A stretch of DNA of 24,000 bases, taken from Dyella ginsengisoli. Its GTDB lineage: Bacteria; Pseudomonadota; Gammaproteobacteria; Xanthomonadales; Rhodanobacteraceae. The notes under the pieces were generated by a model that made no database searches, was not told the origin of the DNA, and saw only the letters and a list, made by a program, of their open reading frames with translations. Position numbers and translations under genes: made by a program. Numbering within the stretch: position 1 is the first letter of the stretch; every line of letters begins with the position of its first letter. Location of the stretch: assembly GCF_044904665.1 (NCBI RefSeq), contig NZ_JADIKM010000001.1, forward strand, positions 1,467,995-1,491,994. The letters are read 5' to 3'. Shown in pieces: positions 10,600 through 11,253 of this stretch.

Positions 10600-11253
10600 A
10601 TGGCCAACTACAAGTGCAAGAACGACAAATGCAACGAGGTAGTCACCGCAACAAAGAAGCCGGGCAAGTGCACGAAGTGCGGGAAGAACAAAGGGTGGGA
10701 CCTGGTAGTAACGGCCACCACCACCGGACGCGACACCTCCGACGTGCCCGAATGGGACAACGCGGCGACCACCGCGCTGACGGCGGCCAACCTGGTCACC
10801 GGTAGCGCGCTTTCCACGCTGGGTGGCCAGCACGGTCTACCGAACGCTGCCTGCCTGGGGGCGGTGTACGACGCCATTGAGGTGCCGGCCGGCGGCAGCG
10901 ATCGCAACGCGATCTACTTCAACGCCTTCAGCGCCAACTACGACAACGACACCAGCAAGCTGGCCAAGACCGATCTGGCCGCCAACGCGCCGTTCGCGAT
11001 CAACAGCACCGCCTCGCACTGCGCCGAACGCGCCTTGTGGAAGAGCATCTCCGGCAGCCTGACCGGCGTGACCCTGCTGGGCATCGGGCAGACGACACGC
11101 CCCTGTCTGCTGTGCTGCGCTCGCTACCGTGCGCTGGCGGCCAGCAAGAACATCACCATCCTCATCTACTTCGACAAGAAGTACGACAGCCTGCCTGGCA
11201 ATACCTGGCTGCTGTTTCCGGCGACCGCCGGGACGGCGATGTACACGAGCTGA
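10600..11253 (+). CDS. Zn-ribbon + deaminase-fold protein (candidate nucleic-acid/nucleotide deaminase toxin)
   Basis: 217-aa ORF with an AAAGGAA RBS. The N-terminal C6-x4-C11-x12-C24-x2-C27 forms a zinc ribbon. The C-terminal SHCAERALW (codons at 11017-11028), 24 residues, then RPCLLCC (11101-11118) gives the HxE ... PCxxC deaminase signature. Confidence 0.7.
   Translation: MANYKCKNDKCNEVVTATKKPGKCTKCGKNKGWDLVVTATTTGRDTSDVPEWDNAATTALTAANLVTGSALSTLGGQHGLPNAACLGAVYDAIEVPAGGSDRNAIYFNAFSANYDNDTSKLAKTDLAANAPFAINSTASHCAERALWKSISGSLTGVTLLGIGQTTRPCLLCCARYRALAASKNITILIYFDKKYDSLPGNTWLLFPATAGTAMYTS

Follow-up and report, generated by a model that had tools for sequence, protein, structure and literature searches.

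The question raised by this locus is whether a small protein encoded within a type VI secretion system (T6SS) gene cluster is a deaminase of a new kind and, if so, whether it is exported into other cells or acts within its producer. The protein is the product of an open reading frame (ORF) at positions 10600 to 11253 of the forward strand of a 24,000-nucleotide stretch of Dyella ginsengisoli DNA (contig NZ_JADIKM010000001.1), called the window below and always meant at its full length. An earlier reading of the letters (the original prediction) had described this ORF, hereafter the candidate, as a zinc ribbon fused to a deaminase fold and as a candidate for free-standing T6SS cargo. On the evidence set out here, residues 60-217 are well supported as a deaminase domain of a new, rare and unnamed clade, predicted to be a zinc-dependent hydrolytic enzyme of the CDA-like superfamily, and export of the protein by the T6SS as cargo is plausible. 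The candidate is made up as follows.

10600..11253 (+): complete ORF comprising zinc ribbon, linker and deaminase domain, with 19 close homologues, all 215-221 amino acids (aa) long
10609..10707 (+): zinc ribbon of rubredoxin-like type at the N-terminus, residues 4-36 (C6, C11, C24, C27)
10729..10773 (+): linker with the conserved motif RDTSDxPEWDNAA, in which W52 is nearly invariant across the family
10777..11250 (+): deaminase-fold domain, residues 60-217, with a confident domain model
11020..11028 (+): C141-A142-E143, N-terminal end of helix 2, with a predicted zinc ligand and the predicted catalytic Glu
11101..11115 (+): P168-C169-L-L-C172, N-terminal end of helix 3, with the other two predicted zinc ligands

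As described earlier, the ORF starts with ATG and encodes 217 aa; it is complete, and a plausible AAGGAA element lies about 10 nucleotides upstream. The GC content at its third codon positions is 0.88, matching genuine genes of this window (about 66% GC), and its ratio of nonsynonymous to synonymous substitution rates (dN/dS) against seven homologues is 0.04-0.28. The candidate is a real gene under purifying selection.

Family size and active-site signature

The family to which the candidate belongs is tiny. A search of 5.8 billion proteins yielded the 19 close relatives, which are 61-98% identical and all annotated as 'hypothetical protein', with an organism named for only three of them (Dyella and Rhodanobacter), while an exhaustive hidden Markov model (HMM) search of 1.84 billion cluster representatives at E <= 1e-3 yielded 26 proteins (clusters). 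Pattern scans of genomes and of metagenomes gave at least three loci each, and these counts are lower bounds because the patterns were exact peptides.

Conservation within this small family is concentrated in what would be the active site. C141-A-E-R and R-P-C-L-x-C-C are invariant in the alignment of the 19 close relatives, and across 28 diverse members, reaching down to 21-22% identity, seven columns remain invariant (C141, E143, Q164, P168, C169, C172, and A180), five of which (C141, E143, P168, C169, and C172) are the metal-ligand or catalytic positions of a CxE/PCxxC deaminase. The gene is functional, and its conserved core is an active site of deaminase type.

The original prediction had placed a His-x-Glu signature at the start of one helix, which proved to be a miscount: SHCAERALW contains H140-C141-A142-E143, that is, H-x-x-E from the His, and the position of H140 is occupied by H, Q, or R even in close homologues, whereas no variation occurs at C141 or E143. 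The signature should therefore read CxE...PCxxC, and the predicted metal ligand of helix 2 is Cys141 rather than a His. The second half of the signature had been read correctly, since in RPCLLCC (R167-P168-C169-L-L-C172-C173) the PCxxC motif P168-C169-L-L-C172 follows the Glu after 24 residues (E143 to P168). When the window is translated in six frames, two matches to [HCD]xE-x20-45-PCxxC result, one in the candidate and one in the ORF at 12290-12685, compared with a mean of 0.2 in first-order Markov randomisations of the window; conservation across the family is a stronger argument for the motif than the rarity of the pattern.

The N-terminal ribbon has exactly the spacing described earlier, C6-x4-C11-x12-C24-x2-C27, and all four cysteines are invariant in the 19 close homologues. 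NCBIfam rubredoxin-like domain models match the ribbon of the candidate weakly; RUBY_RBDX reaches 2.8e-6 in homologues, and Zn_ribbon matches as well. In a full-length AlphaFold model, the ribbon forms three short strands with a predicted local distance difference test (pLDDT) score of about 70-78, and the linker scores 54-57.

Predicted fold and classification

Comparison with profile libraries, which had been proposed as a check, came out in two parts. Neither the candidate nor the homologues scanned (the 19 and the 28) match a Pfam or NCBIfam deaminase model, and the only matches are to rubredoxin or zinc-ribbon models at the N-terminus; the candidate belongs to none of the named toxin-deaminase Pfam families. 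Isolated sub-threshold Pfam matches occur among the 28 relatives (Pput2613 at E 0.061, SNAD4 at 0.25, OTT_1508 at 0.36, and dCMP_cyt_deam_1 at 0.27); for dCMP_cyt_deam_1, the CDD/CDA model, the candidate and 27 of the 28 family members have no match, and the best E is 0.27. In profile searches of the PDB, all four sequences returned with profile A2, and the top four of the five returned with profile A3, were BaDTF3/DddB toxin deaminases, matched at E 0.08-0.5 with the catalytic Glu, the PCxxC motif, and the next strand in register.

The full-length model has a pLDDT of 74, and its helices already begin at CAE and at PCxxC. Searched against the PDB with Foldseek, it matched Bacillus subtilis CDA best, along with APOBEC3, DddB, DYW, and SsdA (7jtu), all weakly. 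Since this model was mediocre, residues 60-217 were remodelled with the deeper 28-sequence alignment, which gave a pLDDT of 89.1 and a predicted template modelling score of 0.85. The elements of the domain model follow the order a1-b1-b2-a2-b3-a3-b4-b5, in which b1-b2 is a long hairpin and no helix intervenes between b4 and b5 (DSSP assigns strands to 127-134 and then 143-147, with no helix between them). In domain numbering, helix 2 begins at residue 83, with CAE at 82-84, and helix 3 begins at 111, with PCxxC at 109-113; the deaminase-superfamily signatures, [H/C/D]xE at the start of helix 2 and PCxxC at the start of helix 3, are thus both present in the predicted structure. C141, C169, and C172 are predicted to hold a catalytic zinc, and E143 is the predicted proton shuttle.

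The top 23 Foldseek matches of the domain model in the PDB are all AID/APOBEC proteins, with a probability of 0.97-1.0 in 21 of the 23 (minimum 0.80), TM scores of 0.38-0.49, E-values of 5.6e-3 to 8e-2, and 10-16% identity. The order of elements in the model is that of deaminases (b1-b2-a2-b3-a3-b4-b5 in the three-layer alpha/beta fold of the superfamily), and the structural comparison proposed earlier returned deaminases, although none of them reaches E 0.001. A library of viral structures gave weak dCMP-deaminase and JAB matches. Within the superfamily, the division with a C-terminal hairpin is marked by an antiparallel b4-b5 hairpin without helix 4, commonly has the CxE signature, and comprises CDD/CDA, blasticidin-S deaminase, DYW, YwqJ, SCP1.201, BURPS668_1122, Pput_2613, and MafB19, whereas APOBEC and OTT_1508 fall in the helix-4 division outside it (PMC3239186). 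By its modelled topology, the candidate would belong to the hairpin division, and since APOBEC is of the helix-4 type, the APOBEC matches are taken to reflect the shared core of the superfamily. Invariant CxE and PCxxC motifs, model topology, and fold matches together support the earlier assignment of the C-terminal half to the deaminase fold.

Location in a T6SS island

The candidate lies in the variable region of a T6SS cluster, with tss genes, clpV, PAAR, and vgrG around it. Upstream, Pfam identifies tssB, tssC, hcp (2378-2878), tagJ (ImpE), tssE, tssF, tssG, and clpV; downstream of the variable region follow PAAR, a TPR-methyltransferase gene, vgrG, and a DUF6931 gene. The main landmarks are given below.

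7218..9953 (+): clpV (tssH), Pfam AAA_2 and ClpB_D2-small, the upstream edge of the variable region
10081..10527 (+): 148-aa ORF directly upstream of the candidate (u148), one of a small family with a Cys/His motif, which recurs beside the candidate without being obligatory
16654..16941 (+): PAAR gene, Pfam PAAR_motif 1.9e-26, the downstream edge of the variable region
16953..18335 (+): TPR-plus-SAM-methyltransferase gene directly 3' of PAAR, kept in every related T6SS locus seen
18361..20445 (+): vgrG, ATG start (longest ORF 18301-20445), Pfam Phage_GPD, Gp5_trimer_C, and Phage_base_V
20460..20999 (+): DUF6931 gene directly 3' of vgrG, kept in every related T6SS locus seen

Between these edges, the order is u148, candidate, Endonuclea_NS_2, a 131-aa ORF (CAE...PCENC), OTT_1508, a 337-aa ORF, a frameshifted gene, and a 145-aa ORF, all co-directional and separated by short gaps; a promoter and terminator scan of 9800-16700 gave nothing above background. 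Two long ORFs that overlap clpV, at 6954-10133 (-) and 7085-10162 (+), of 1059 and 1025 aa, are high-GC artefacts whose composition is not gene-like. Group 3 T6SSs of Xanthomonadales, including those of Dyella and Xanthomonas citri, consist of two structural blocks around a variable insertion, with TagJ and conserved genes of unknown function after PAAR and vgrG (PMC6653060), and the T6SS of the window has this group-3 architecture.

Nine distinct T6SS loci that bear a homologue at 48-98% identity, the window included, were compared (the L numbers denote loci).

Window, L001/L008, and L015: clpV, u148, candidate, Endonuclea_NS_2
L005: clpV, 292-aa EEP-like ORF, candidate, gap, OTT-like, dCMP-deaminase-like, kinase
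L016: clpV, candidate, OTT-like
L024: clpV, 361 aa, 181 aa, candidate, OTT-like
L010: clpV, candidate, 253 aa, 296 aa, u148, 194 aa, PAAR
L017: clpV, three small ORFs, candidate, u148 remnant, HNH, PAAR
L009: 245 aa, 277 aa, candidate, gap, PAAR
L011 (48% identity): clpV fragment, candidate, 193 aa

In all nine, the candidate follows clpV. Eight of them have it in the stretch from clpV to PAAR or next to PAAR; the ninth, L011, is a short contig with only a clpV fragment upstream. The neighbours vary from locus to locus and include genes of toxin type (Endonuclea_NS_2, OTT_1508 deaminases, HNH, and one more ORF of deaminase-like character). Between loci, the candidate is 65-68% identical, compared with 57% for VgrG, 68% for DUF6931, and 78% for ClpV; since its divergence is comparable to theirs, the candidate has travelled with the T6SS cluster as the genes beside it came and went. 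In Rhodanobacteraceae (the soil bacteria Dyella and Rhodanobacter), it is a lasting occupant of the variable region that clpV and PAAR enclose in a Xanthomonadales group-3 T6SS. An assignment as a core T6SS component was rejected, since L018 is a T6SS of the same type without the gene.

Exported cargo or cytoplasmic enzyme

The reading that we tentatively prefer, holding it at a little short of even confidence, is that the candidate, as a zinc deaminase of a new clade, is a stable free-standing T6SS cargo that probably deaminates polynucleotide bases in recipients and needs no immunity gene. In such a scheme, a two-module protein, composed of the ribbon (residues 1-36), a flexible linker, and a deaminase domain of about 155 aa, would bind zinc, be catalytically competent, and leave the producer through the T6SS as a free-standing effector of the cargo type. 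Nucleic-acid bases of the recipient would then be deaminated, most plausibly cytosine to uracil, and a dedicated immunity protein could be dispensed with if the enzyme were harmless to its producer or if its target lay in non-kin cells such as eukaryotic predators. The T6SS of X. citri, the sole characterised group 3 system of Xanthomonadales, protects against Dictyostelium (amoebae) and is not antibacterial (PMC6653060), a role that would fit effectors without immunity genes. The location of the gene speaks for the cargo claim of the original prediction, as every locus at 48-98% identity has it in the T6SS effector region, whereas the absence of an immunity-type neighbour, the homologues outside T6SSs, and the lack of the gene in L018 speak against that claim. 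A bolder version, in which the candidate would be an immunity-free nucleic-acid deaminase delivered by the T6SS against amoebae or fungi, one of three unrelated deaminase-fold proteins per island, and a compact CxE scaffold, APOBEC-like in its core and with a ribbon that could be detached, of possible use in base editing, strikes us as improbable.

Several lines of evidence weigh against the cargo reading, the first of which is distribution. The related T6SS locus L018, which holds u148, a lipase, and a Tse2/Tsi2 pair, lacks the candidate. Homologues of lower identity (26-40%; L012, L013, L014, and L021) have no T6SS genes nearby: in Plasticicumulans lactativorans (L012), the gene lies between PNPOx-like and GFA-family genes, a few kilobases downstream of hrcA-grpE-dnaK-dnaJ; L013 and L014 are metagenomic contigs with the homologue outside a T6SS; and in Salmonella enterica (L021), P0037, a protein of 192 aa without the ribbon, is encoded in an island rich in IS66 and DDE-transposase genes, with no T6SS genes within 10 kb. 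The second is delivery: by Pfam, the candidate has no PAAR, Rhs, MIX, or adaptor domain, and a wider scan for delivery markers and adaptors (PAAR, Rhs, MIX, FIX, DUF4123, DUF1795, and DUF2169) was likewise negative for the candidate and for the island ORFs scanned. Group-3 variable regions, moreover, can also hold regulators such as EcfK/PknS (PMC6653060).

The third concerns immunity. The known T6SS deaminase toxins carry an adjacent immunity gene (PMC13346905). No neighbour of the candidate is shared across the nine T6SS loci, and no co-varying immunity gene is evident among them. On the upstream side, clpV abuts the candidate in L010, L011, and L016, and elsewhere the neighbour is u148, the 292-aa EEP-like ORF, a 168-aa ORF, or a 181-aa ORF; on the downstream side, it is Endonuclea_NS_2, an OTT-like gene, a 253-aa ORF, HNH, or nothing. 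A hidden small ORF downstream was rejected, as tblastx comparison of the gaps in L005, L009, and L017 disclosed only a u148 remnant and a conserved PAAR leader.

Closest to a partner comes the Cys/His family, small and fast-diverging proteins with an N-terminal [FY]P-x3-5-C-x(~15)-x-H motif, whose members are listed here.

Window: 10081-10527 (+), u148
L017: 2047-2553
L011: 849-1430
L024: 5314-5856 and 8411-8944

A gene of this family directly adjoins the candidate in the window, L015, L017, L011, and L024, and alignment of the u148 profile with hhalign gives E 2e-4 against the 168-aa ORF of L017 and 0.02 against the 193-aa ORF of L011; the u148 subfamily itself is tiny (eight clusters at >= 77% identity). 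Cys/His-motif proteins are, however, absent from L005, L009, and L016; one is degraded in L017, another does not adjoin the candidate in L010, and L018 has them but no candidate. Given these absences and the candidate-free occurrence, they cannot be obligatory immunity proteins, and u148 was rejected in that role. L016 and L024 are close relatives, their OTT-like neighbours being 88% identical, and only L024 has a Cys/His-family gene beside the candidate. The motif resembles that of CheD/CNF-type Cys-His enzymes, but the idea that the u148 family might be a CheD/CNF-like deamidase found no support in Pfam or in a PDB profile search.

These same observations invite another explanation, namely that the candidate is not secreted but works as a deaminase in the cytoplasm of its producer and merely resides in the T6SS variable region, with possible roles in the editing or modification of tRNA or other RNA, nucleotide or nucleoside conversion, detoxification of some nucleoside-type compound, or post-transcriptional control of the T6SS. 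It would account for the lack of a conserved immunity-type neighbour in the nine T6SS loci and for the solitary distant homologues in ordinary or unrelated neighbourhoods (L012, L013, and L014), and it accords with the steady purifying selection and cluster-like vertical inheritance of the gene, as opposed to the presence/absence turnover of its neighbours, with the regulators known from group-3 variable regions (EcfK/PknS; PMC6653060), and with a CxE motif and C-terminal hairpin that also characterise the housekeeping CDD/CDA and blasticidin-S deaminase class (PMC3239186). What it does not explain is the strict T6SS-island location of the closer homologues, every one of which (48-98% identity) sits in the effector region among nuclease and deaminase genes of toxin type. 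With 26 clusters in the 1.84 billion representatives, the family is also too rare for a housekeeping enzyme; it has no CDD/CDA Pfam match beyond one homologue at E 0.27; and a role in the T6SS itself is disfavoured by L018, which shows that the gene is not core, and by the lack of a regulator-type domain. We regard a cytoplasmic function as doubtful on balance, though a substantial possibility.

The distant homologues also bear on the earlier suggestion that the ribbon might be a loading handle. Two of those outside T6SSs (L012 and L013) have the ribbon, so that it predates the association with the T6SS, which makes a substrate-binding or structural role likelier than loading; about half of the distant family members lack the ribbon. 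A loading function is accordingly disfavoured.

A fourth point against the preferred cargo reading concerns the likeness to known deaminases. The candidate has no match at E <= 0.1 to SCP1.201, MafB19, YwqJ, Pput_2613, XOO_2897, BURPS668_1122, OTT_1508, DYW, SNAD, or APOBEC, and no single match to a known deaminase is conventionally significant, the best Foldseek E being 5.6e-3 (none reaches 0.001) and the best HMM E 0.08. Individually insignificant matches, and the blank in the Pfam and NCBIfam deaminase models, are what one would expect if the fold call were wrong or if the protein were an inert deaminase-fold protein of structural, adaptor, or immunity type. We consider this scarcely credible: the C, E, P, C, and C positions are invariant throughout the family, whereas inactive paralogues have in most cases lost either the Glu or one of the ligands (as in Tad3, an inactive deaminase paralogue without the E; PMC3239186), and both the topology and the ranking of fold matches consistently indicate a deaminase.

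Finally, the candidate might be an anti-phage or other intracellular conflict enzyme, for instance one that deaminates phage DNA or nucleotides, housed in a hypervariable island within the T6SS cluster. A single-gene system can do without an immunity partner, the family is rare, patchily distributed, and associated with islands (an IS-rich one in the case of the Salmonella homologue), and the nearest fold matches are APOBEC-type restriction enzymes. Against this, PADLOC has no match for the candidate or six neighbours, PHROGs has none for the candidate and, among its neighbours, only a weak match of the nuclease to an unnamed PHROG, the location is constant relative to T6SS genes and not to defence islands, and no sensor or regulator module is apparent. 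A defence function is, in our view, very unlikely.

Other genes of the variable region and of related loci

The window holds two further deaminase-like ORFs. One, a second free-standing deaminase of 249 aa at 12831-13580 (+), matches OTT_1508_deam at 32 bits (cut-off 27); it opens with an M-A-R-CPEC...H...C module followed by a highly charged Arg/Glu helix, and it is 74-75% identical in L001 and L008 while the flanking genes are 97-98% identical. The other, of 131 aa at 12290-12685 (+), has a CAE...(40 residues)...PCENC arrangement, the third deaminase-like signature of the island, and no match in Pfam, NCBIfam, or the PDB. The islands of L005 and L016 likewise hold three deaminase-like ORFs each, the candidate together with an OTT-like and a dCMP_cyt_deam_1-like one, the last of 152/157 aa at 23.7 bits (cut-off 25). 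A single T6SS island can thus hold three unrelated deaminase-fold genes.

The Endonuclea_NS_2 nuclease (11310-12011 (+), 233 aa, 7e-14) and the 337-aa ORF (13929-14942 (+)) co-occur in every locus that holds either; they are adjacent in L015 and split in the window by the inserted pair of 131-aa and OTT_1508 ORFs. They are likely an effector-immunity pair divided by cassette insertion. At about 15037-15544 (+) lies a frameshifted homologue (44-47% identity) of the 181-aa Cys/His-motif protein of L024, with its N-terminal part in one frame and its C-terminal part (ORF 15194-15544) in another. L001 and L008, loci nearly identical to the window, lack the 0.8-kb segment with this gene; the gene is either a pseudogene or the product of a sequencing error.

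In L018, a pair of genes for a Tse2-like ADP-ribosyltransferase and a Tsi2-like immunity protein lies between tssG and clpV (2594-3318), and a Lipase_3 gene lies near PAAR; by virtue of the Tse2/Tsi2 pair, this T6SS lineage, of Rhodanobacteraceae type, can carry classical antibacterial effector-immunity pairs. In the Salmonella locus L021, P0037 lies about 5.5 kb from a gene for a Pertussis_S1/Scabin-like ADP-ribosyltransferase (L021 3945-4541 and 10001-10579). Between clpV and the candidate, ORFs of L005 (9026-9904) and L024 (4181-5266) have SDHCPV-type motifs and start with 'W-N-[ML]-Q-K'; we take these ORFs to resemble EEP (DNase I-like) nucleases or phosphatases, and the L005 ORF has no Pfam match. 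An EEP protein is among the X. citri group-3 candidates (PMC6653060).

Significance

If active, the candidate would represent a deaminase clade overlooked by current HMM libraries, and its architecture, a free-standing combination of zinc ribbon and CxE core, has not previously been described for T6SS deaminases. The fixed location in a T6SS whose closest studied relative protects against amoebae, together with the absent immunity gene, poses the question of whether some T6SSs inject nucleic-acid deaminases into eukaryotes or whether 'immunity-less' deaminases are tolerated by the producer. New small deaminases are candidate parts for base editors, although deaminase mining is already a crowded field.

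Comparison with known deaminase systems

DddA, SsdA, and DddB are known T6SS deaminase toxins (PMC7901873; PMC13346905). DddA (BaDTF1) and SsdA (BaDTF2) are interbacterial T6SS effectors of the deaminase fold, which the candidate is predicted to share, but they have no sequence-level match to it and occur as the C-terminal domains of larger proteins of PAAR/Rhs type that have cognate immunity proteins (PMC7901873; PMC13346905). A parallel in setting is the OTT_1508 (PF14441) ORF at 12831-13580, which is likewise free-standing, lies in the same T6SS variable region, and has an N-terminal Cys-rich module (CPEC...H...C) and a similar Glu-to-CxxC spacing. OTT_1508 is, however, of the HxE, helix-4 division (PMC3239186), and the candidate has no PF14441 match (one homologue reaches E 0.36); alignment of the candidate family profile with the two other deaminase-like ORFs of the window by hhalign was not significant, with the CxxC regions of the OTT_1508 ORF paired at a probability of only 6%.

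Among other deaminases, AID/APOBEC proteins account for the 23 top fold matches but have HxE and helix 4, compared with CxE and no helix between b4 and b5 in the candidate. CDD/CDA and blasticidin-S deaminase resemble it more closely in these features, having CAE on helix 2, PCxxC on helix 3, and a b4-b5 hairpin without helix 4. By motif or HMM, the candidate is nevertheless not CDD/CDA: it has PCLLCCAR in place of the PCxxCR of that clade, a long b1-b2, an N-terminal extension, and a zinc ribbon, and it is encoded in a T6SS island rather than among genes of pyrimidine salvage.

The sole near-threshold sequence relatives in the PDB are toxin deaminases, namely BaDTF3/DddB, a double-stranded DNA cytosine deaminase toxin of Taylorella equigenitalis (9k3e, 9pw0-2). 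DddB and the candidate are both small T6SS-associated deaminase cores; DddB holds zinc by one ligand of helix 2 and two Cys of helix 3, and the positions of CAE and PCxxC at the helix starts of the candidate match this placement (PMC13346905). DddB uses HxE where the candidate has CxE, and matches at E 0.08-0.5 do not show membership of the candidate in the DddB family. DddB is also a C-terminal domain, carried by a large YD-repeat toxin that exceeds 2000 residues, with an HhH insertion and an adjacent DNA-mimic immunity gene (PMC13346905), whereas the candidate is a free-standing protein of 217 aa with an N-terminal zinc ribbon and no conserved neighbour. Taken as a kind, a toxin-type deaminase in a T6SS island is known already; what is new is a clade invisible to family models, an architecture of zinc ribbon and CxE core, the lack of an immunity partner, and fixation in a T6SS of the anti-eukaryote type.

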